Assembly: GCA_016208165.1 (NCBI GenBank)
Contig: JACQYL010000001.1
Span: 8,099 to 72,098 of the forward strand
Direction: 5' to 3'
Origin: Deltaproteobacteria bacterium
Lineage (GTDB): Bacteria; Desulfobacterota; Desulfarculia; JACQYL01
DNA: 64,000 nucleotides
Every line of letters starts with the position of its first letter. The stretch's first letter is position 1. The translations under genes and the position numbers were made by a program. Positions 22,604-39,875 of the stretch are shown here, in pieces. The notes under the pieces are model-generated. The model did no database searches. It saw nothing but the letters and a program-made list of their open reading frames with translations, and was not told the origin of the DNA.

Positions 22604-24508
22604 GTGCTTATTGTGGCGAATAGTCTCCAACAACGTTTGATGTTTTTCGTGCTGATTCCGATTGCGTTTCTGCTGTTTCTGATAGGAAGCATCGGCTTTC
22701 TGTACGCGCGAAACACCATGCTTTCAGAATGGCGGGAAGCCGCCGTTTTGAAGCTTCAACGGGGCGCTCACCAGATGGATATGAGGTTGAGCCGGCCTCT
22801 GGAATGGATACGGATGTTCCAGCAGTCCGGCGAGCTGCTCCAGACATCGATTCAGGATTGGCTCATTTCCCGGCTGCAACAACTCGGGGGAGTGGAAAGC
22901 GCCCATATCGAATGGTTCCCTGAGTACGGGGGCGCAGGTGGTACTTCAGGGGATCACATGGGTGCGGGAACGGGCAAGGACATGAATACGGACATGAAGC
23001 CGTTTCAGGAGGGTGGAGTTGCCCGAATAACCCCGCCAAAATTGGATTCCACCACCGGTAAGAAAACGGTGACCATCGAGTCGAACTTACTGGATAGGGA
23101 CAACCGGACCGTGGGTCAGCTTCAAGTGATCATCAGCTTCGAGTATCTGCTGGAGGGTGTGCTCTCTTCGAGTTGGACCGAAGGAGACAAGGCCTGCCTG
23201 GTCGACGAAAATGGCGCTTATCTGGCTCATACGGCCGCCATCGACGCGGGCCGGCGTCGTCTGGGCGGCGCCGGCGATTCCTTGGAATTAGCCATTTTGG
23301 AGGCCCTGAAAGACCGGCCGTTCGGGACGGTACTAGGCCGTGGACATCCTCCCGGCGAGGTGGCAGGGTTCTGCAGGCTGCAAAATGCCCCATGGACCAT
23401 CGTCGTATTTGCTCCAGGGGATAAAATTCTTGGGCCCATCGTACGATTTCGTACCTATTTCTTCGGCTTCGGAATTATTTGTATCGGCATCGTGCTGATG
23501 CTCATAAGACTGACAACCGCGGGAACGGTCCGCTCGATCCAGGAGATCTCCGCTTCCGCAAAGCAGGTCGCCTCGGGAGACTACGGAAGAACGCTTTCCG
23601 TCAGAAGTCGAGACGAGGTGGGGCAACTGACCAGGAGCTTTAACACCATGATCGCGGAGTTGAGGCAAAAGGAACGGATTCGCAATATGTTCGGACGCTA
23701 CGTGGACAAGGAGGTGGCCGAGGAACTGCTTCGGGGGCCGGAATCGACCCGGCTGGGAGGAGAAAAGCGCGAGGTGGTGATCCTGATGTCCGATTTGCGG
23801 GGGTTCACGCCACTGTGTGAGGCCATGAGTCCGGAAATTGTAATCGGGGTCCTGAATCGCTATTTTTCATATATTATCGGAATCATCCATCGATACAAAG
23901 GTATTATCATCGATTTTGTTGGGGATGCCGTCCTCGTCTTTTTCGACCCGATAACCTCGACCGTCGACGAGAAGGCCAAGGATGCGGTGCAATGCGGTCT
24001 TGAAATGCAGTCCGCCATGGAACGGGTCAACGACGAAAATCAGGGGCTCGGAATACCCCGGTTGAGCATGGGGATCGGGATCCACTCCGGCGAGGTGATC
24101 GTGGGAAACATAGGGTCCCAGTCCAGAGCCAAGTACGGCATTGTGGGCGCGCCCGTGAACCTCACGCAACGGATCCAGTCCGTTGCGGAAGGGGGGGAAG
24201 TGGTGGTCTCCGAATCGGTTCGCCGGCGAACCGGGGAAGCTTTCCGGGTTCTCCGTAGCTTCAAGACCCGGCTCAAAGGAGTGCACGATCAAGTAACCCT
24301 ACACGTTGTCGATGGATCGGTAGAAGTGGGCCATTCACGAGACGGTGGGGAACATCCCGTTCAACATGATCACAGGCCTCCGGAGAGAGACGGACAAAAG
24401 AAATCCTCTGTCCTCGAAGGGGGGAAGGATCAAGAACGGTTTCAGCAGGCGGATCGAAGGGATCCTGTTCCTTCTCCCCGTCGAGGACAGGGAGAAGGAA
24501 CAGGATGA
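22604..24508 (+). CDS. membrane-anchored class III adenylate/guanylate cyclase with periplasmic sensor and HAMP domain; C-terminal ~70 aa low-complexity tail
   Basis: TM1 (FFVLIPIAFLLFLIGSIGFLYA), a periplasmic region, TM2 (FFGFGIICIGIVLMLI), HAMP (VRSIQEISASAKQVASGDYGRTLSV...LTRSFNTMI) and a cyclase domain (VVILMSDLRGFT...DFVGDAVLVFF...GIHSGEVIVGNIGS...GIVGAPVNLTQR). GTG start at 22604; an alternative ATG lies at 22640. Confidence 0.8.
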   Translation: MLIVANSLQQRLMFFVLIPIAFLLFLIGSIGFLYARNTMLSEWREAAVLKLQRGAHQMDMRLSRPLEWIRMFQQSGELLQTSIQDWLISRLQQLGGVESAHIEWFPEYGGAGGTSGDHMGAGTGKDMNTDMKPFQEGGVARITPPKLDSTTGKKTVTIESNLLDRDNRTVGQLQVIISFEYLLEGVLSSSWTEGDKACLVDENGAYLAHTAAIDAGRRRLGGAGDSLELAILEALKDRPFGTVLGRGHPPGEVAGFCRLQNAPWTIVVFAPGDKILGPIVRFRTYFFGFGIICIGIVLMLIRLTTAGTVRSIQEISASAKQVASGDYGRTLSVRSRDEVGQLTRSFNTMIAELRQKERIRNMFGRYVDKEVAEELLRGPESTRLGGEKREVVILMSDLRGFTPLCEAMSPEIVIGVLNRYFSYIIGIIHRYKGIIIDFVGDAVLVFFDPITSTVDEKAKDAVQCGLEMQSAMERVNDENQGLGIPRLSMGIGIHSGEVIVGNIGSQSRAKYGIVGAPVNLTQRIQSVAEGGEVVVSESVRRRTGEAFRVLRSFKTRLKGVHDQVTLHVVDGSVEVGHSRDGGEHPVQHDHRPPERDGQKKSSVLEGGKDQERFQQADRRDPVPSPRRGQGEGTG

Positions 24509-31005: not shown

Positions 31006-31292
31006 AACCCACCCCCTTCGTAAGGACCATGCACACCCGTTATCAGGCTGTTGAAAAGCGCGATCTGCGGCGTTGCGCTTCATCCCTCGTCACTGCGACG
31101 TACTCTATGTACGCCTTCATTCCGCGGGATTTGCGCGCCTTGCATCTCATCGTTTTTCAACGGCCTGTAACAACCCGGCTGTTTCAACGGGCTGTTATCG
31201 TTCCCGGAAACCAAGTGGTCGCAAGTCGAACACCGCCCCAGAGCCACTGTCTTTCTTAGTTCGAGCCGTCTAAAGAGCATTTGTCTTTCGAA

Positions 31293-31727
31293 CTACTTGT
31301 CGCTTTTATGTTGATTCTGTTCTTGTCGCGCTTTTTTTTCGATATCATTTGGGATTTGTCTGATGGTTTCTTCCATTTGAGTGGTCCAAGTCTTCACCCA
31401 TTCACCTTCGTCGTACGCTTCCAAGCTGTCAGCGTATATGGCATTGTACTTGCCTTTTACGTCCCCTGTTATACGGACGGTTCCAAACATATGTCGCGCG
31501 AGTATACGATTCGAAACATTCAAAACAAAATAGTACTTCCCTTCATCCGTGTACACGATAATATGTTCCGCAGTGGCTGCAACAGGGTCTTCCTGGTTGA
31601 TAGGGCAGGATATACCGTAAATGACACACATAAACGGTTTCACGGTTCCTTCGATTTGTCCCGCCAATGCGGGCATACATCCCACTAACAAAACACACGT
31701 CATCAAGGCAATCAGGCTTTTTTTCAA
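31293..31727 (-). CDS. small secreted protein with conserved Cys pair (paralog of 22008-22427)
   Basis: Signal peptide MKKSLIALMTCVLLVGCMPALAG. It aligns with the 22008 product (AGQIEGTVKPFMC...CP; IVYTDEGKYYFVLN; WVKTWTTQMEETIRQI) and has a Lys/Glu-rich tail. Confidence 0.55.
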   Translation of the reverse strand: MKKSLIALMTCVLLVGCMPALAGQIEGTVKPFMCVIYGISCPINQEDPVAATAEHIIVYTDEGKYYFVLNVSNRILARHMFGTVRITGDVKGKYNAIYADSLEAYDEGEWVKTWTTQMEETIRQIPNDIEKKARQEQNQHKSDK

Positions 31728-32384
31728 GGTCTTATCTCCTCATAGAGCATCCTGTGTTGAAGCTACGATCCGACCCCTATCTTCATCGGTCCGAATCCCC
31801 GATACGGCGGGATTATATCGTTATCAACGGGTTGGAGCAAGGGAAAGTCGGACCTTTTCTACCGAAGATTCCGCCTGGGGTCGAATCAGCGGGGGGCCGG
31901 GAGGAATCGTACGGGAACGCATCCGAGCTTTCTTTTCGATTTCATCCGTTGATCCAACCTGTTCCCGTTCGCTCTCTCGCACCGGCGGAGCATGCGATGT
32001 CGCTTGACCGCCCTTTTATTCGGCCGGTATACTGCCTGGGTTCGCAGGGATGGTCGCTCGGCATCGCGGTTTGTATGCGAATTCCTAAATGCGAAGCCGC
32101 GACCATTTCTTTTGCGGGTTGACACACTGCCGTCCGGCTATCATGTTATGAATTATATTTGATGAACTCGTAAAGACTCGAGAGCGACCGTTTTCCGTCA
32201 TTCCGGTGAAAGCAGGAATCCAGTAATTTCATATACTTATGGATGCAGGATCAAGTCCGGTATGACGCCGTGGGGACTTTTTACGAAGGCCTCAAATTTG
32301 AGACAGCCTTGGCAGGGGCCCCTTCGGGAAGACACCTCGCCGGATTCCGTTTTTTTGACGACCACGAACGATTTGAGTGATCCC

Positions 32385-33641: not shown

Positions 33642-34877
33642 ATGGCGGGAAACCCGTTTTGGAGCACCAAACTGGAAAACGGACTGTCGTTGGTTTTTGA
33701 AAGCATCCCTCGGCTCGGTTCCACGGCGGTGGGATTTCTCGTGCGCACCGGATCCCGGGACGAACCGAGAAACCGTGCCGGTATGTCTCATTTCTTGGAG
33801 CACATGTGCTTTAAAGGCACGGCCGGGCGTTCCTGGGATCAGATCAATCGGGAGGTGGACGATCTTGGCGCATTGTGGAACGCGTATACCTGGTGGGAAG
33901 GCACGGCTTACTTCCATTGGGTTCAAGCCGAACGTGCGGAGGATTCCATCGACATCCTCGCGGATATGATGCGTCCTAAATTGGACGAAGCGGATTTCAA
34001 CATGGAAAAGGGCGTGATCCTCGAGGAAATCGCCATGTACAATGACAATCCTTCGGCTCTCATTGCCGATCGACTGATACAGGCCGCCTTTGGAGATCAT
34101 CCCTTGGGAACCAGCGTTTTGGGCACCGCGGAGACTGTGACCGCCGTGAGCCACAGCGATATGACGGCTTATTTTCGACGCCGTTACACCCCCAATAACA
34201 TGGTATTCCTGGCCACGGGAGCCATTGAAAGGGAACGGCTCGTGGAAACAGTCCGGCGTCATACGGCGACGTGGACCTCGGGCGAAACGGGAAGATCCCA
34301 ATCCGTCCCGGTGTTTCACTCCGAAACCCGGCCGGCGCACCGTCCGGAGGTTGCACGTGAACATCTGGCCCTGGCTTGGCCCGGACCGGAAGTGGGAAGT
34401 CCGTGGGCGCCCGCCGCACGCGTGCTGGCCCGCTATCTGGGGGAGGAGGAAAACAGCCGTCTGTACTGGTCGGTCAAGCAAAAAGGCCTGGTGGACCGGG
34501 TGAGCGCCTCCCATGTGGGCTTCAACGATTCGGGACTGATGTACGTGTACGCTTCCACCGCTCCGGCCAGAGCCGGAGAAGTCCTGGGGCTCATTCGTGA
34601 GGAGATGGCAAGAGTGCATCGCCGCATCGACGAGGCGGCCCTTTCGAGGTCCAGGATAAAGGCGGAGTCCGCCTTGGTGCGCGAGGCGGAGCACGGCCTC
34701 AGCCGCTGGAACCAGCTGGCGGAAATCGAAAACGCCGGAGCCGCCAGAAAAACGGTGACCCAAGCCATGAAGGATATCGAGGACGTAACGGTGGACCGGG
34801 TAAGGGACTTCCTCGACGAATTTCCTCTGGACGGAGAACCGGCGTTGGTGCCGCTGGGGCCCCTCGAGAGGATCTGA
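33642..34877 (+). CDS. M16-family zinc metallopeptidase (insulinase-like), catalytic subunit
   Basis: Carries the HxxEH motif (GMSHFLEHMCFKGT) plus the downstream Glu region (EKGVILEEIAMY), in the M16 family context. Confidence 0.85.
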   Translation: MAGNPFWSTKLENGLSLVFESIPRLGSTAVGFLVRTGSRDEPRNRAGMSHFLEHMCFKGTAGRSWDQINREVDDLGALWNAYTWWEGTAYFHWVQAERAEDSIDILADMMRPKLDEADFNMEKGVILEEIAMYNDNPSALIADRLIQAAFGDHPLGTSVLGTAETVTAVSHSDMTAYFRRRYTPNNMVFLATGAIERERLVETVRRHTATWTSGETGRSQSVPVFHSETRPAHRPEVAREHLALAWPGPEVGSPWAPAARVLARYLGEEENSRLYWSVKQKGLVDRVSASHVGFNDSGLMYVYASTAPARAGEVLGLIREEMARVHRRIDEAALSRSRIKAESALVREAEHGLSRWNQLAEIENAGAARKTVTQAMKDIEDVTVDRVRDFLDEFPLDGEPALVPLGPLERI

Positions 34878-35640
34878 TCCGGGATCATGATCGACAAAAC
34901 CAACATCATCGCAGCGTTGCTGGAGAGATTGGACAACACGCCCATGGGGCATCATCCGGATATCCGGCCGTATAAAAGAAACTGATCGGTCGTGGTCGTG
35001 CGAAGGACCGAAACGGTTTATGAAATCATTGAAGAAGGATTCTTCTGCGACCGTTTTTCCGTGGAGGCCTCCGGGTTGAAGAAAAGCCTGCGGGTAATGA
35101 TCAAAAAGGAGTTTCCGCGAAGCCACAAAATATGGGTGTACGCCATGGAGCCGTATCCGCAGGAAGAACCGCACGGCACGGAGAGAAAGAAGATTTGAGG
35201 ATTGTTTCACAGATGGTCCGCTTGGGGCCACGGAAAGAGAGGCTGTTGGGTAAGCTAGAGAATCGGAAAGAAGTCAACATGCGGGCTTGCCCCCCGACAC
35301 AGTCCTCTCTCGATAAAATGATATGATTCCGACCTCCTTCCGGGAATTCTTTCCAGAAAGTCCTAAGCTTGCTTCTCTTGGCTTTTCTGGCTATAAATAT
35401 CGACGAATACGGGCTAATAATACAGCAAGGCCTTTTGCATAAACTCTTCATTAGGTTAGGAGCGTCATCGGGGGCAGCGAAGTAAGGAAGATCGTCCTTC
35501 TTGAAGTGATGCGATGTTCAAGGCGGGTACTCTGAAAAGACTGAACAATCTGTTCATCTACCGGGAGCGAATCGCCAAAAAGCTGTTTGTCTCGGAACTC
35601 TGTTACAACCGATCCCTTTAATAGAGCCAGGGGAACGCAC

Positions 35641-36816
35641 ATGAATCGATTTGAAAACCTTCAAGAATTAGAAATAGACACTGAATCGGCATGCTCCGAT
35701 TCCGCCCCAGAAGACGGTGGTGTTGAACCCGAGGAAGTGGAGGGAGACGAGCCCATAACACAGCCCTTCGATCCCACAAAGACGCAGATCATCACTTCAT
35801 GGCCGACGGTTAGCCTCTTGGTGACGAGGATACAAGAGGGAGAAATCGATCTGTTCCCAAGTTTTCAGAGAAAGGCGGACCTCTGGTCGCCAGCCCAGAA
35901 AAGTCGCCTGATAGAATCATTACTGCTTCGCATGCCCCTGCCCTCTTTCTATTTCGACGCCACTGACGACGAAAACTGGGTCGTAGTGGATGGACTGCAG
36001 CGTCTTTGGACGTTACAGGAGTTTCTCCTAAGCGACATGAGGCTTCATCACCTCGAGTTTTTGATTAATTACGAAAATAGCATGTTCAAAGACTTACCCC
36101 GACACCTGCAGAGACGTATCGGAGAGACGCAGGTCGTTGCGCATCTCATTCAGCCGGGCACACCACCCCAGGTAAAGTTTAACATATTTAGGCGAATCAA
36201 CACGGGTGGATTAGTTCTCTCGGCCCAAGAGATCAGGCACGCACTGAATCAAGGGAATGCACCCCAATTCCTAAAGAAACTCGCGTGCTCGAAGGCTTTC
36301 TTAGAGGCGACCCAAGGGAGCGTGCGCCCCGATCGTATGGAAGATCAGGAATTTGTACTTCGTTTCATGGCTTTCACGATCGTTCCGTACCCTCAATATA
36401 AGGTAGCAGATCTTGATGGGTTTCTGCATGAACAAATGGCTAGATTGAACACCGTCGGAAATGATGAGCTCGAAGACCTAGAGGTGAGATTTCAACGGGC
36501 TATGAGAGCATCAAGGCTGATCTTTGGAAGACAGGCCTTCAGGAAAAGCCTTAGGGATGGGGTTTCGGCCTGGAGAAATCCCATCAACAAGGCCATCTTT
36601 GAGGTCTGGTCCGTCACTCTGGGCCAACTCACTGAAGATAAATTAGAACATTTAATCCACCGAAAAGATGACGTCATCAGTAGATTTATTGAGGTTTTGA
36701 ACACTAATGACGAGTTTGTCGCCGCGGTATCTCAAGGAACTGGGGACGTAAAGAAAGTGAAGCAGCGGTTTAAAACCGTTGCCAAACTTGTAGAGGATAT
36801 CCTCAATGCAAACTAA
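35641..36816 (+). CDS. DUF262 (ParB/Srx-fold, GmrSD N-terminal-like) domain protein; no fused DUF1524/HNH domain
   Basis: Reads IDLFPSFQRKADLWSPAQKSRLIESLLLRMPLPSFYF...VVDGLQRL, the DGQQR-type motif, then a ~250-aa alpha-rich C-terminal region. Its 3' end overlaps the next gene by 11 nt. GC is lower than the flanks. Confidence 0.8.
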   Translation: MNRFENLQELEIDTESACSDSAPEDGGVEPEEVEGDEPITQPFDPTKTQIITSWPTVSLLVTRIQEGEIDLFPSFQRKADLWSPAQKSRLIESLLLRMPLPSFYFDATDDENWVVVDGLQRLWTLQEFLLSDMRLHHLEFLINYENSMFKDLPRHLQRRIGETQVVAHLIQPGTPPQVKFNIFRRINTGGLVLSAQEIRHALNQGNAPQFLKKLACSKAFLEATQGSVRPDRMEDQEFVLRFMAFTIVPYPQYKVADLDGFLHEQMARLNTVGNDELEDLEVRFQRAMRASRLIFGRQAFRKSLRDGVSAWRNPINKAIFEVWSVTLGQLTEDKLEHLIHRKDDVISRFIEVLNTNDEFVAAVSQGTGDVKKVKQRFKTVAKLVEDILNAN

Positions 36817-37927
36817 TCACCTGCAGGCCATCCATCTAATGAATTTTAAGTGCTTCGAAGACCAGAAGGTTTCGCTTGCTCCGATTACCCTCCTCACAGG
36901 TCTCAACGGCATGGGTAAGTCAACAGTATTACAGAGCTTGTTGCTGCTTCGACAATCGGCCATGCGGAACGTGTTGGAACACTATGGTTTGCTACTGAAC
37001 GGCGATTTGGTGAATCTGGGCAGGGCAGGCGATGTGCTGTTCGAAGGTGCTCGAGACGAGCATATTGTTCTTGAATTGACCGTTGGCGGGATGCAGGAGT
37101 CCTGGAAATTCAGGTATGAGGATCCCCATGCGGACGTGCTGATGCTGGAAGAGGGACCAAAGGTCTTGCCTGAATGGGTGGTTTTCGGCAATCGATTCCA
37201 TTATTTGGCGGCTGAGCGCATGGGGCCACGAGAAATCTACGAGATCTCTGCCTACTATGTTCGCAAATTGCGACAATTGGGCGCAGATGGGCGATTCGCG
37301 GTGGCCTATCTTGAAGAATACGGAAAAAGCCTGCGGTGCCTCCAAGGGTTGCTGCATCCGAAAACCTCTGACTCGACGGAGGAAAATCTTTATTCACAGG
37401 TTAACTTGTGGCTGGGAGAAATCAGTCCTGGTGCGCGATTGGAACCGATTTCCTTCCCGGACATAGGCAAGACTTCGTTGAGGGTTTCCTTTCCTTCTTC
37501 TACCAAGGGGCTAATGTCCAGACCATATTCGACGCCCAATGTCGGCTTCGGTTTCAGTTATACGCTCCCGGTTCTTGTGGCCGTTCTGTCGTCTTCTTCA
37601 GGAGATTTGGTTCTCATGGAAAATCCGGAGGCACATCTGCATCCGCAGGGACAAGTGGCGTTGGGGCGACTGTTCGCACTCGCCGCGTCTGGCGGGATAC
37701 AACTCATTGTGGAGACTCACAGTGATCATATACTGAACGGAGTACGCGTAGAAGTGAGGGATGGTTGTATTGCCAGCGAGGATGTGCGCATTCATTTTTT
37801 CCAACGGAACCAGCCTGGTGGGCAGCATTTTGTGGAGTCTCCTCGGGTGGATAAGGATGGACGAATCGATAACTGGCCGGAAGGATTTTTCGATCAAACA
37901 GAGCGTCTCCTAATGGAATTGATTTAA
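36806..37927 (+). CDS. ABC/OLD-type ATPase (AAA_15/AAA_21-like N-terminal core with DUF3696-like C-terminus)
   Basis: Walker A LTGLNGMGKSTVLQSL. Walker B plus D-loop DLVLMENPEAHLHPQGQ. H-loop IVETHSDHILNG. A C-terminal tail (DGRIDNWPEGFFDQ). Confidence 0.8.
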   Translation: MQTNHLQAIHLMNFKCFEDQKVSLAPITLLTGLNGMGKSTVLQSLLLLRQSAMRNVLEHYGLLLNGDLVNLGRAGDVLFEGARDEHIVLELTVGGMQESWKFRYEDPHADVLMLEEGPKVLPEWVVFGNRFHYLAAERMGPREIYEISAYYVRKLRQLGADGRFAVAYLEEYGKSLRCLQGLLHPKTSDSTEENLYSQVNLWLGEISPGARLEPISFPDIGKTSLRVSFPSSTKGLMSRPYSTPNVGFGFSYTLPVLVAVLSSSSGDLVLMENPEAHLHPQGQVALGRLFALAASGGIQLIVETHSDHILNGVRVEVRDGCIASEDVRIHFFQRNQPGGQHFVESPRVDKDGRIDNWPEGFFDQTERLLMELI

Positions 37928-37945
37928 GGCCGCAGGGTTCCCCGA

Positions 37946-38902
37946 TTGCATCAGATATTGAACGAGTTGTCTTTCCAGAAGGTCTCTACGAGCGTAAAGG
38001 ATGCCCAGGAACGCATGCATATGCTCTTGCTCGTTTTCAAGGCCGTTGCTGATTGCGGTTCTGAGAAGATCCTTCGTACCAAACGAAACCTTATGTCCGA
38101 ATTGGTTGCTTCCCAATATACTGTCTCGCACTGGCTTCAGGACAGACGCGTGAACCGGGACGAACGGTTATTATTCAAGACCGTAGCAACGAAAGCCCCT
38201 TTTGTCGAGGAACTCTGGAACAAATTGGAATCAGACGACTTGGGCCTGCACGAATTCTATTTCCAAGGTCAAAAAGCTGAGGGTTTGGGCGTGGCTTATC
38301 TTGACGATACATGTGCTCTTTCCCTTGGAGGTGATCAGAGGTTCGAACAGGATCCCATTCAAGTCGTGTATCAAGTGATGTATGCCCTAAATAGTAGATT
38401 GGGATCCGAAACTGTGGAAGTCTGCTCTTTGAGTAACTTAGACCATGTATGCCGCCGTTGCGTATGGATTGGTGAACGTGCTCAAAGACAGGTCGTCGAT
38501 GGGGTCTCACTCTGGGAGCAAAAGGAATCTCTATTTCCTCGTCTCGCGTTTCTCCCTGCAACCAAGGCGCAAATTCAACAGTTATCGGGGCGTGAACCTC
38601 ATTTCCGCCAAGTTCTTAAACATCTTTTCATACTGAACAGTGCGATGAAAAAGTGGGCTGGAGGGCCGTACAACCCGGAAGGCATCGAATGGTCCGCAGA
38701 AAGCCTGTCTACAAGGACCAGCAAGAAACTTGCGGACGCCCGCAGGTTTTCTAATTCTAACGGTAACTTCGCAGTATATAATTACCACACGAAGATTAGA
38801 GGCATCAACTGGCGCATACACTTCCATCCTGATACTGAAAAACAGATCGTGACCATAGCATACATAGGACGACATCTGCCAACAGCCAGACACGGAAAGT
38901 AA
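37946..38902 (+). CDS. hypothetical protein, third gene of the island; C-terminal ~45 aa resemble a RelE/ParE-fold toxin
   Basis: No catalytic motif is recognised in the N-terminal 270 aa. The C-terminus (FAVYNYHTKIRGINWRIHFHPDTEKQIVTIAYIGRHLP) follows the RelE/ParE pattern [R-hh-Y/F-x-h-x(6)-h-x-h-xx-h-G-x-H]. It starts 19 nt after the ATPase stop. Confidence 0.55.
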   Translation: MHQILNELSFQKVSTSVKDAQERMHMLLLVFKAVADCGSEKILRTKRNLMSELVASQYTVSHWLQDRRVNRDERLLFKTVATKAPFVEELWNKLESDDLGLHEFYFQGQKAEGLGVAYLDDTCALSLGGDQRFEQDPIQVVYQVMYALNSRLGSETVEVCSLSNLDHVCRRCVWIGERAQRQVVDGVSLWEQKESLFPRLAFLPATKAQIQQLSGREPHFRQVLKHLFILNSAMKKWAGGPYNPEGIEWSAESLSTRTSKKLADARRFSNSNGNFAVYNYHTKIRGINWRIHFHPDTEKQIVTIAYIGRHLPTARHGK

Positions 38903-39197
38903 AAGCAGCCGACTCAAGTTCAAGACTTCCATTCTTTTTTTTGCAGAAGCGGAACAGCTATTCGGTTTCCGATTGGGATCTCAATATTTACCTGCCAGGA
39001 TCATGATCCTTTTCTCCCCCACTGCGGCCGCATTTTTTAAATAGACGACCACCGGATTTCGTTCTATATTCAGGTACATCCTCTTCTAAAGGGAGCTCTG
39101 GAGGTTCATTCGTCGGGGAGCGGGCCTGGTGGCGCCGGCTGAGCAGGTAGGAAGTTCCCCCGGCGGACCGGGCCGATTCGAACCATGGGATGACCCT

Positions 39198-39875
39198 ATG
39201 CACGAAAGTCATGTGTCCATCGAAGTAGCGGGTGCGGGCGGCGTGTCGGGTATCGTTTCCATGCCGGGCGATTTCCGCCCGGGTACGGGGACTGCGGTGG
39301 TCCTCGCCCACGGAGCGGGCAATGACATGCACAACCCGTTGCTCGAGGCCGTGGCTTCGGGACTGGCGGATGCCGGGTATCCGGCGCTACGGTTTAATTT
39401 TCCTTACAAGGAACAGGGGCGCAAGGCCCCGGACCGCCGGGAAATCCTCGAGTCGGCCTGGCAATCCGCGTTCGAATTTATGGAAGAACACGACGAAATC
39501 AGACCGGAACGCGTGGTGGCCGCCGGAAAATCCATGGGCGGCCGCATCGCCGCCGAGATGGTGTCCGCCGGCGCACTGCCCGCGGACCGGCTCGTCTTTC
39601 TGGGATATCCGTTGCACGCGCCCGGCGAGAAAGATCGCCTGCGGGATGCCCGTCTTTATGATATTTCGGTTCCCATGCTGTTCTTCGCCGGCTCAAGGGA
39701 CTCTTTATGCGATCTGAAACTTCTCAGGAGCGTGTTGTCCAAACTGAGAGCGCCCTGGGACCTCGAGGTCATTGATGGGGGCGACCATTCCTTTAAGTTG
39801 CCCAGAGCGTCCGGGATTTCAGAAACCGATGTATTTGCCCGTATCGTGAGCAAGATGCTTGACTGGCTCACTTAG
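39198..39875 (+). CDS. alpha/beta-hydrolase fold protein (dienelactone hydrolase/KANL3-like)
   Basis: Contains AVVLAHGAGNDMHNPL and the nucleophile elbow AAGKSMGGRIAA, with Asp/His downstream (GSRDSLCD, GGDHSF). Confidence 0.75.
   Translation: MHESHVSIEVAGAGGVSGIVSMPGDFRPGTGTAVVLAHGAGNDMHNPLLEAVASGLADAGYPALRFNFPYKEQGRKAPDRREILESAWQSAFEFMEEHDEIRPERVVAAGKSMGGRIAAEMVSAGALPADRLVFLGYPLHAPGEKDRLRDARLYDISVPMLFFAGSRDSLCDLKLLRSVLSKLRAPWDLEVIDGGDHSFKLPRASGISETDVFARIVSKMLDWLT

Follow-up and report, generated by a model that had tools for sequence, protein, structure and literature searches.

A probable Type I Menshen anti-phage locus between housekeeping genes of an uncultured deltaproteobacterium

Introduction

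Three tightly packed plus-strand genes in the metagenome-assembled genome (MAG) of an uncultured bacterium, labelled Deltaproteobacteria, raise the question of whether they form an undescribed defence system or a known one concealed by generic names. GenBank calls their products 'DUF262 domain-containing', 'DUF3696 domain-containing' and 'hypothetical', and a first-pass annotation, made from the letters alone, had proposed an uncharacterised defence island. Menshen is an anti-phage system that was named in 2022 (Millman 2022) and dissected computationally in 2025 (Li et al., NAR, PMC12065111). Its architecture is present in 1,997 genomes of 27 phyla, including Deltaproteobacteria and Thermodesulfobacteriota (Li et al., NAR 2025, PMC12065111). 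Defence by Menshen has been demonstrated for the Solibacillus silvestris system only, which protects against T2, T4, T6 and Fado and requires the DUF262 gene (PMC12065111, PMC10952713). PADLOC models for NsnA, NsnB and NsnC exist since 2023. We have analyzed the locus within a window of 64,000 nucleotides, the whole stretch of DNA considered here.

Results

Genomic setting

The ORF listing, the GC content and the neighboring genes agree with the earlier description of three closely spaced genes of low GC between housekeeping functions (Table 1). The GC is 0.46–0.52 over positions 35000–39000 against 0.55–0.65 in the flanks, which code for an AMP-binding acyl-CoA ligase, two M16 peptidases, an Abhydrolase_11 protein and HlyD/AcrB efflux components. 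The ORF listing also gives the 11-nt overlap of genes 1 and 2 as it had been read (36806–36816), while the spacer between genes 2 and 3 measures 18 nt (37928–37945) instead of 19, and the upstream non-coding gap, put before at about 760 bp, extends for 763 nt from the end of the M16 peptidase gene (34877) to nsnA. The next gene after nsnC, an alpha/beta hydrolase, lies 226 nt downstream. No second defence system was found within about 20 kb at either side, and the PADLOC matches to PycC and RtcR in the window correspond to an ordinary Cache-HAMP-cyclase and a sigma-54 activator. The term defence island has therefore to be dropped: this is a lone Menshen between housekeeping genes. Neighboring defence systems are also lacking in ca. 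72% of Menshen loci (Li et al., NAR 2025, PMC12065111).

Scans of the whole window for tRNAs and Rfam families gave no matches, so that neither a tRNA-linked integration site nor an RNA element of known type is present. A 14-nt direct repeat flanks the low-GC segment (34879–34892 and 38995–39008, 13/14 identical). We do not take it for an att site or a target-site duplication, since chance alone should give about two such pairs per 5 kb (an estimate) and the second copy occurs in degraded form in L010, a related metagenomic contig that we used for codon-position comparison. When genome contigs were searched for an empty site with the upstream M16 peptidase, no close relative came up; identity reached ~52% at best (Latescibacterota), without synteny of the downstream hydrolase, and the insertion is thus only putative.

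Table 1. Features of the Menshen locus and its upstream region (positions in the window; n, number of NsnB proteins compared)
Feature	Position	Strand	Remarks
Low-GC non-coding region upstream of nsnA	34878–35640	+	GC 0.47–0.54
Small ORF, 68 codons	34992–35198		Probably not a gene
nsnA (gene 1)	35641 (ATG)–36816	+	391 aa; in-frame TTG at 35587
NsnA domains			Acidic disordered N-terminal loop, residues 1–39; ParB-DUF262 NTPase-like, ~residues 46–205; helical C-terminal 'ParBDB', ~residues 206–391
NsnA motif I, Q76-R77-x4-W82	35866–35886	+	Q76, R77, W82 invariant in 30 homologues
NsnA motif II, D117-G-L-Q-R121 (DGxQR)	35989–36003	+	D117, G118, Q120, R121 invariant in 30 homologues
NsnA motif III, F183-R-R-I-N187 (FxxxN)	36187–36201	+	F183, N187 invariant among 30 homologues
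nsnB (gene 2)	36806–37927	+	373 aa; GenBank MBI4772600.1
NsnB Walker A, G32-LNGMGKS-T40	36899–36925	+	G32, N34, G37, K38, S39 invariant (n=6)
NsnB signature G247-F-G249 (GxG, not ABC 'SGG')	37544–37552	+	V246, G247, F248, G249 invariant (n=6)
NsnB Walker B, L268-VLMEN273 ('EN', not 'DE')	37607–37624	+	E272 invariant; N273 in 5/6
NsnB H-loop/sensor, E303-THSDH308	37712–37729	+	E303, H305, S306, H308 invariant (n=6)
NsnB DUF3696 tail, residues 322–372	37769–37921	+	Pfam; W357-P-x-G-F-F-D363 invariant (n=6)
nsnC (gene 3)	37946 (TTG)–38902	+	318 aa; deposited model MBI4772601.1 begins at 38021
NsnC N-terminal alpha/beta domain, ~residues 1–240	37946–38665	+	PIN-like, without the PIN acidic catalytic set ('inPIN')
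NsnC C-terminal BECR/RelE-fold domain, ~residues 241–318	38666–38899	+
NsnC candidate catalytic residues	H281 38786–38788; R290 38813–38815; H310 38873–38875	+

Assignment to Menshen

The best PADLOC profiles of the three proteins were NsnA (E 1e-136), NsnB (E 4.4e-111) and NsnC (E 1e-65), each near full length. Pfam identified GmrSD_N (DUF262) in gene 1 and AAA_15/AAA_21 plus DUF3696 in gene 2, a layout equal to that of published Menshen, and gave no match for gene 3; Pfam and NCBIfam together provide no name for gene 3 and no system-level name for the other two. We conclude that the three genes make up a complete Menshen of Type I (nsnA-nsnB-nsnC), carried as a lone and putative low-GC insert; the probability of their being Menshen is put at about 0.9. 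The idea of a three-gene anti-phage module thus stands, but that of an uncharacterised one does not: the profile search returned an already named system, and the locus is real but known. The gene order is conserved as well. In the 11 loci that we inspected, from 6 NsnC homologues, GmrSD_N was always followed by AAA_15/DUF3696 and then by the NsnC homologue (9 loci came from 5 distant homologues, including Oscillatoria sp., and two were contigs of the near relative). This co-directional A-B-C adjacency, kept across genomes, is characteristic of Menshen.

In the comparison with published Type I Menshen (inPIN plus PB-BECR1-type NsnC; PMC12065111) we found no difference of substance. The gene order and the overlapping or tight spacing are the same, as are NsnA (ParB-DUF262 and helical ParBDB, preceded only by a loop), NsnB (EN, GxG, Arg Q-loop and DUF3696 tail) and NsnC (PIN-like domain without catalytic acids and RelE fold with an H-R-H triad). 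Here the host is an uncultured MAG, and motif I of NsnA is one residue longer, with four residues between R and W where the published DUF262 motif is QRxxxW (PMC12065111). The sequences are probably distant from those of the tested S. silvestris system. Sequence searches of the PDB detected no solved structure of a Menshen protein. The peptides quoted in the first-pass annotation (FQRK...VVDGLQRL, GLNGMGKST, LVLMENPEAHLHPQGQ, ETHSDH and WRIHFHPDTEKQIVTIAYIGRH) are all present in the translations.

The three proteins

NsnA is the candidate sensor of the system. It had been described as a stand-alone DUF262/ParB-like protein lacking DUF1524, and Pfam concurs: GmrSD_N is present, and no DUF1524/HNH was matched in gene 1 or in the neighboring genes. 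All three motifs, QRx(n)W, DGxQR and FxxxN, are found, together with the helical ParBDB, and nucleotide binding is predicted to centre on DGxQR (PMC12065111). NsnA matches BrxU and SspE in its fold, and relatives at E<=1e-20 number more than 7,000. Residues 1–39 are modelled without secondary structure, at a pLDDT below 50, and structured elements begin at about residue 45. The N-terminus is therefore only a disordered loop, with no folded domain before ParB-DUF262, which places the locus in Type I.

NsnB, the predicted transducer, is an ABC-type (OLD-ABC/AAA_15) ATPase with a DUF3696 tail, as had been read from its motifs (AAA_15 7e-21, AAA_21 4e-20, DUF3696 1.4e-16). Residues 6–373 align on positions 2–343 of the 345 of the PADLOC profile. 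Residue conservation was assessed over 6 NsnB proteins from distant Menshen loci. The GxG signature and the EN replacement in Walker B are named hallmarks of NsnB (PMC12065111); in addition, a conserved Arg138 replaces the Gln of the Q-loop. From AlphaFold 3 models (PMC12065111), the N-terminal domain of NsnC is predicted to dock on the DUF3696 tail.

NsnC, the candidate effector, aligns over residues 2–312 with positions 4–304 of the 305 of profile PDLC03879, and a second NsnC profile, PDLC03912, was matched at E 1.6e-64. Its AF2 model (pLDDT 90.6) combines an inactive PIN-like N-domain with a C-terminal toxin/nuclease effector domain of BECR/RelE fold, in keeping with the RelE/ParE likeness noticed at first, and this domain is predicted to be an RNase. 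PB-BECR1 has a helix and a four-stranded antiparallel sheet, an H-R-H triad and YafQ-like toxins as nearest structures. The fold and H281, R290 and H310 fit the description of this type, to which the domain may belong. The family is large (3,809 cluster representatives at E<=1e-3), as expected of the dominant PB-BECR1 type.

The deposited nsnC (MBI4772601.1) begins 25 codons late and lacks 25 conserved N-terminal residues, among them the first beta-strand of the PIN-like domain. In 150 family members residues 1–25 are occupied in 96–98%, with N6 conserved in 98% and S9 in 96%. The TTG start and the peptide ILNELSF are conserved in L010, where the counterpart model is also short by 25 residues. 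If expressed, the annotated ORF would probably yield a misfolded protein.

Comparison with the near relative

The substitutions between this locus and L010 at the first, second and third codon positions were 20/7/51 in nsnA, 12/9/34 in nsnB and 29/22/97 in nsnC. Their concentration at third positions indicates that the three genes are real and under purifying selection, and the locus has kept its place in a lineage that differs by ~10–13% in protein. Third-position divergence was 9–13% in nsnA and nsnB, with the leader in the same range, and about 30% in nsnC; in the flanks it was 18% for Abhydrolase_11 and 27–29% for M16 and HlyD. Separate histories of the sensor/transducer and effector halves, through recent exchange of nsnAB or faster turnover of nsnC, are a tentative and rather unlikely explanation of these figures. 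Li et al. (PMC12065111) inferred such histories at deep phylogenetic scale only; if the pattern were true across many strain pairs, it would offer a population-level handle on the shuffling of Menshen effectors.

The low-GC region before nsnA presumably holds its promoter and 5' leader. Scanning 34700–39300, we found no sigma-70-like site on the plus strand upstream of nsnA, and terminator-like matches were no commoner than in shuffles; neither tRNA nor Rfam matches appeared in 34878–35640. The small ORF in this region was discarded as a fourth gene, having no Pfam match, 69% protein and 79% DNA identity to L010, and substitutions of 15/9/20 by codon position, without third-position bias. The leader (35199–35640, 442 nt) is 89.5% identical to L010, with 1-nt indels. 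It was also discarded as a structured RNA, its fold z-score being +0.48 and its 10.5% divergence equal to that at third positions in the neighboring nsnA and nsnB.

Discussion

Relation to other systems

GmrSD, BrxU and SspE carry DUF262 and a DUF1524/HNH DNA nuclease in one polypeptide, whereas NsnA has no nuclease and the effector here is a separate protein of RNase fold. NsnB shares its OLD-type ABC ATPase with Gabija (GajA), Septu (PtuA-PtuB), PARIS (AriA-AriB) and the OLD family. Its PADLOC matches include AriA (1.7e-23), GajA (2.7e-14) and PtuA (1.5e-12), and a sequence search of the PDB yields an OLD nuclease and PtuA; with the GajA and Old profiles the match is confined to the ATPase motifs. 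An ATPase oligomer that restrains a toxin is the logic predicted for both. However, Toprim and HNH partner domains are absent from NsnB, and where OLD nucleases and GajA are ABC ATPase-Toprim fusions its 373 residues end in DUF3696; Menshen also needs a third protein, the DUF262 one, and its effector is of RelE fold. The NsnC domain is just 5–19% identical to RelE/ParE RNases (YoeB, YafQ, RelE, HigB) and forms the C-terminal quarter of a 318-residue protein, fused to the 240-residue PIN-like domain. Contrary to Type II toxin-antitoxin pairs, in which a stand-alone toxin of ~90 aa adjoins a small antitoxin gene, nsnC has no small antitoxin-like ORF beside it, and an ABC ATPase is the predicted means of control.

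Proposed mechanism and alternatives

The chain of sensor, transducer and effector published for Menshen may apply here, by analogy and from structural models, with about even odds. NsnA, with its ParB-DUF262 NTPase-like and helical DNA-binding domains, would recognise incoming phage DNA, possibly modified DNA as in its relatives GmrSD and SspE. This signal would alter the nucleotide state of NsnB, a predicted GajA-like tetramer in which two DUF3696 tails are predicted to hold the inactive PIN domain of NsnC. Once released or allosterically activated, NsnC would cleave RNA through its RelE/YoeB/YafQ-like BECR domain (H281, R290, H310). Phage production would stop because the transcripts of the phage are attacked or because translation in the host is shut down (abortive infection). 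The models yielded no predicted contact between NsnA and NsnB (PMC12065111).

Menshen might instead act on DNA, NsnA or an NsnB-associated activity cutting phage DNA in a Type IV-restriction-like manner, with NsnC as a specificity or adaptor subunit. Some sources annotate NsnA as 'ParB-like nuclease', its nearest structural relatives (BrxU/GmrSD and SspE) target DNA, reviews and a 2025 preprint class Menshen with OLD/Toprim 'nuclease-NTPase' systems, and T2, T4 and T6, blocked by the S. silvestris system, are modified-DNA phages. We consider this improbable. The DUF1524/HNH module by which GmrSD, BrxU and SspE cut is missing from NsnA, and Pfam detects no Toprim domain in NsnB. Within the operon, a nuclease-like fold that has conserved residues of catalytic type occurs only in the BECR domain of NsnC, a domain related to RNases, and NsnC C-termini swap among toxin and nuclease domains as expected of an effector.

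That the locus derives from Menshen but no longer defends, either as a decaying remnant or as a selfish addiction cassette in which NsnB restrains the toxin NsnC, appears very unlikely. It would suit a lone low-GC insert without defence neighbors, a toxin fold in NsnC and a negative promoter scan; but isolation is the usual condition of Menshen loci, all three frames and every catalytic-type motif are intact, and both the strong third-position bias in the three genes and the retention at the same site argue against it. A different DUF262-based system (PD-T4-2, Dazbog or a HEC-03/HEC-05 candidate) is more improbable still: gene 1 matches PD-T4-2_A at 7e-33 and HEC-05 at 1e-4, and gene 2 HEC-03B at 9e-36 and PDC-M55A at 1e-28, but the Nsn profiles outscore these by ~100 orders of magnitude over the whole length of the proteins, all the profiles found with gene 3 (15) are of NsnC, and every homologous locus has the Menshen order. 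An undescribed three-gene defence or abortive-infection system, suggested by the generic GenBank labels and a gene 3 nameless in Pfam/NCBIfam, can practically be dismissed given the strong NsnA/B/C matches and the same architecture published in 2025 (PMC12065111).

Significance

Beyond the correct annotation, the importance of a Type I Menshen at this site is small. Any intact and compact representative of Menshen is a possible experimental subject, this one having no special advantage. The case illustrates how a set of HMMs built for defence genes can immediately put a name to proteins that are just 'DUF262 / DUF3696 / hypothetical' in Pfam, NCBIfam and GenBank. For the family, the locus adds one Type I Menshen to the ~2,000 catalogued, from a poorly sampled uncultured lineage.

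Identification of the locus as Menshen

The three genes at 35641-38902 had been read in the first-pass annotation as a defence module of novel architecture. Their defensive role was rightly inferred and the sequence accurately read; the novelty was not borne out, since all three products match the PADLOC profiles of an already named anti-phage system, Menshen (NsnABC), which is an outcome that the annotation itself had listed as a refutation. We put the probability of this identification at about 0.9. The runner-up PADLOC families, PD-T4-2_A (7e-33) and HEC-03B (9e-36), were some 75-100 orders of magnitude weaker, and 14 more NsnC profiles of PADLOC also match the third gene. The domain content was as anticipated from the sequence, Pfam giving GmrSD_N (DUF262) alone for gene 1, AAA_15/AAA_21 plus DUF3696 for gene 2 and zero matches for gene 3; an NCBIfam search of the three proteins added nothing useful. 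In GenBank (MBI4772599-601) they are labelled only DUF262, DUF3696 and hypothetical.

The discovery of Menshen is credited to Millman et al. 2022 (PMC12065111). The system of Solibacillus silvestris protects against T2, T4, T6 and the Bacillus phage Fado (PMC12065111), and mutation of the DUF262 gene abolishes defence (PMC10952713). All the testable features that define Menshen Type I are present, and 35641-38902 is an already known kind of locus. The DUF1524 domain that defines GmrSD, BrxU and SspE is absent from it, as are the Toprim domain of OLD and GajA (Pfam finds none in NsnB) and the small toxin/antitoxin pair of stand-alone RelE-type toxin-antitoxin modules. The three-gene linkage is also conserved: on the contigs of five distant NsnC homologues (9 loci, with Oscillatoria sp. 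and a 2.7-Mb contig among them), a GmrSD_N gene and then an AAA_15/DUF3696 gene lie directly upstream of the NsnC homologue in 5/5.

Features of the window, with the best PADLOC matches and the protein identity to L010, a JGI metagenomic contig of a near relative (nsn genes from the ORF listing)
Feature	Position	Strand	Remarks	PADLOC match	Identity to L010
nsnA (gene 1)	35641-36816	+	ATG start; in-frame TTG at 35587	NsnA, E 1e-136; residues 26-389, profile 22-384 of 385	93.4%
nsnB (gene 2)	36806-37927	+	11-nt overlap with nsnA	NsnB, E 4.4e-111; residues 6-373, profile 2-343 of 345	95.2%
nsnC (gene 3)	37946-38902	+	18-nt spacer after nsnB	NsnC (PDLC03879), E 1e-65; residues 2-312, profile 4-304 of 305	84.9%
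Flanking proteins					87-90%
M16 peptidase	33642-34877		upstream neighbour		
68-codon ORF	34992-35198	+	in the gap upstream of nsnA; 86-aa gene call on the JGI relative		69%
14-nt direct repeat	34879-34892 and 38995-39008		CCGGGATCATGATC / CCAGGATCATGATC		
Second low-GC pocket	31250-31750		GC 0.44		
ORF in second pocket	31293-31727	-	144 aa		
Cyclase	22604-24508	+	634 aa	PycC (Pycsar), 8e-23	

Genomic setting

The ORF listing confirmed three plus-strand genes where they had been placed, with the overlap between the first two; the tight spacing of the last two also stood, at 18 nt and not the 19 nt first counted. All the peptide motifs that had been reported are present in the translations. The GC content is indeed lower (0.46-0.52 over ~35000-39000 vs. 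0.55-0.65 on either side) and housekeeping genes flank the segment; they encode an acyl-CoA ligase, two M16 peptidases, an HlyD/AcrB efflux pair and an Abhydrolase_11 protein. No Pfam family matches the ORF in the second low-GC pocket, whose signal sequence (MKKSLIALMTCVLLVGC...) resembles that of a lipoprotein. Near the locus, no tRNA, Rfam family, integrase or transposase was detected by the ORF listing, the tRNA and Rfam scans or Pfam, and a search for relatives via the flanking M16 peptidase found no empty-site relative. A 14-nt direct repeat such as the one bracketing the low-GC segment can be expected by chance in 5 kb, and in L010 its second copy has decayed; an insertion scar is therefore unlikely.

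The upstream M16 peptidase gene ends at 34877, leaving a 763-nt gap before nsnA. The short ORF found there was rejected as a gene: compared with L010 it has a DNA identity of 79% and differences by codon position of 15/9/20, it has no Pfam match, and an in-window TGA shortens its longer form. It evolves unlike a gene and probably is not one. A 442-nt stretch of the gap is conserved, though no more than the low divergence of the adjoining nsnA/nsnB segment predicts, and its RNA folding is not unusual.

The window comes from a MAG that bears the label 'Deltaproteobacteria bacterium'. For the M16 peptidase, the nearest species-representative genomes are Candidatus Latescibacterota MAGs with only ~50-54% identity (loci L012-L018); the label may thus lack precision, and reference genomes cover the lineage poorly.

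The term 'defence island' proved unsuited, as Menshen stands alone here. The sole PADLOC matches in the wider window, a Cache-HAMP adenylate/guanylate cyclase and a sigma-54 activator, were rejected as further defence systems, being ordinary signalling proteins. By Pfam the cyclase is a dCache-HAMP-Guanylate_cyc membrane signalling protein, and its PycC match is false, a generic cyclase domain mimicking a defence system. A lone Menshen is normal, because only ~28% of Menshen operons adjoin other defence systems (PMC12065111).

NsnA and NsnB

NsnA has more than 7,000 relatives at E<=1e-20, most of them ~385 aa long with an identity of 50-59%; a smaller number have 550-670 aa. Invariant in an alignment of 30 sequences were Q76-R77...W82, D117-G-x-Q120-R121 and F183...N187, i.e., the three DUF262 motifs of PMC12065111, with motif I longer by one residue. 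In the AlphaFold model (pLDDT 82.8), residues 1-39 are disordered and are followed by an alpha/beta domain and a C-terminal half made up of helices only. Since it is without a folded N-terminal domain, this NsnA is, judging from the model, of the kind that Li et al. call 'Type I' (PMC12065111).

When NsnB was aligned with five counterparts from distant loci, the invariant positions were the Walker A G32...G37-K38-S39, R138, G247-x-G249, E272(-N273), H305 and, in the tail, W357-P-x-G-F-F-D363. Its 'EN' Walker B, GxG signature and Arg Q-loop match exactly the peculiarities given for Menshen NsnB (PMC12065111).

NsnC and its start codon

A word-indexed search returned only 13 NsnC relatives. When 1.84 billion cluster representatives were searched with a profile, 3,809 reached E<=1e-3 and 1,050 reached E<=1e-30, almost all of them with 305-330 aa and a match over the full length; by sequence, therefore, this is a common and not a rare NsnC type. 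The AlphaFold model is confident (pLDDT 90.6). Among 150 family members, the candidate triad consists of H281 (149/150), R290 (150/150) and H310 (119/150, with Lys in 29), and E252 and S253 are likewise conserved. This fits the published NsnC architecture, an inactive PIN followed by a BECR RNase with an H-R-H triad (PMC12065111), so the RelE/ParE-like C-terminus suspected at first was correct, though previously described for NsnC. The combination of inPIN1 (inactive PIN-like) and PB-BECR1 (RelE-fold effector) is reported to be the majority and likely ancestral one (Li et al., PMC12065111).

Met26 is the first residue in the deposited model (MBI4772601.1, 293 aa) as well as in JGI's gene call for the relative. 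Residues 1-25 are present in 96-98% of the 150 homologues (N6 in 98%, S9 in 96%), the TTG and the peptide ILNELSF are kept in L010, and the AlphaFold model confidently puts a first beta-strand at residues 3-5. For these reasons the start should be the TTG at 37946, giving a 318-aa product with 37946-38020 as the missed 5' end. The cluster representatives P0231, P0240 and P0283 look similarly shortened.

Proposed mechanism

Following the published Menshen model (PMC12065111), NsnA would detect phage DNA via its ParB-DUF262 and helical DNA-binding domains. NsnB, a predicted GajA-like tetramer, would clamp the PIN-like domain of NsnC with paired DUF3696 tails and, by ATP binding or hydrolysis, turn the signal of NsnA into NsnC release or activation, upon which the BECR domain, a predicted RNase, would cut RNA. 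In the main rival reading, Menshen would instead target DNA, by analogy with GmrSD/BrxU; this is weakened because neither NsnA nor NsnB shows a DNA nuclease domain. A PDB sequence search detected no Menshen structure; according to a 2025 preprint, the proteins form higher-order complexes of unresolved stoichiometry.

Selection and mosaic divergence

The near relative (L010 and the Logan contig L011) has the same operon with the same M16 and hydrolase neighbours. Third codon positions hold most of the substitutions between the window and L010 in all three nsn genes, which are therefore maintained by selection. Divergence at these positions is ~13% in nsnA, 9% in nsnB and ~30% in nsnC, against 18% in the Abhydrolase_11 gene and 27-29% in the M16 and HlyD flanks, and the leader upstream of nsnA differs by 10.5% (mosaic over 35199-38902). 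This pattern is a hint that nsnAB and nsnC, as two halves of one operon, may differ in recent history. It suggests that the nsnA-nsnB segment was recently exchanged, or that nsnC has turned over faster or has a history of its own.
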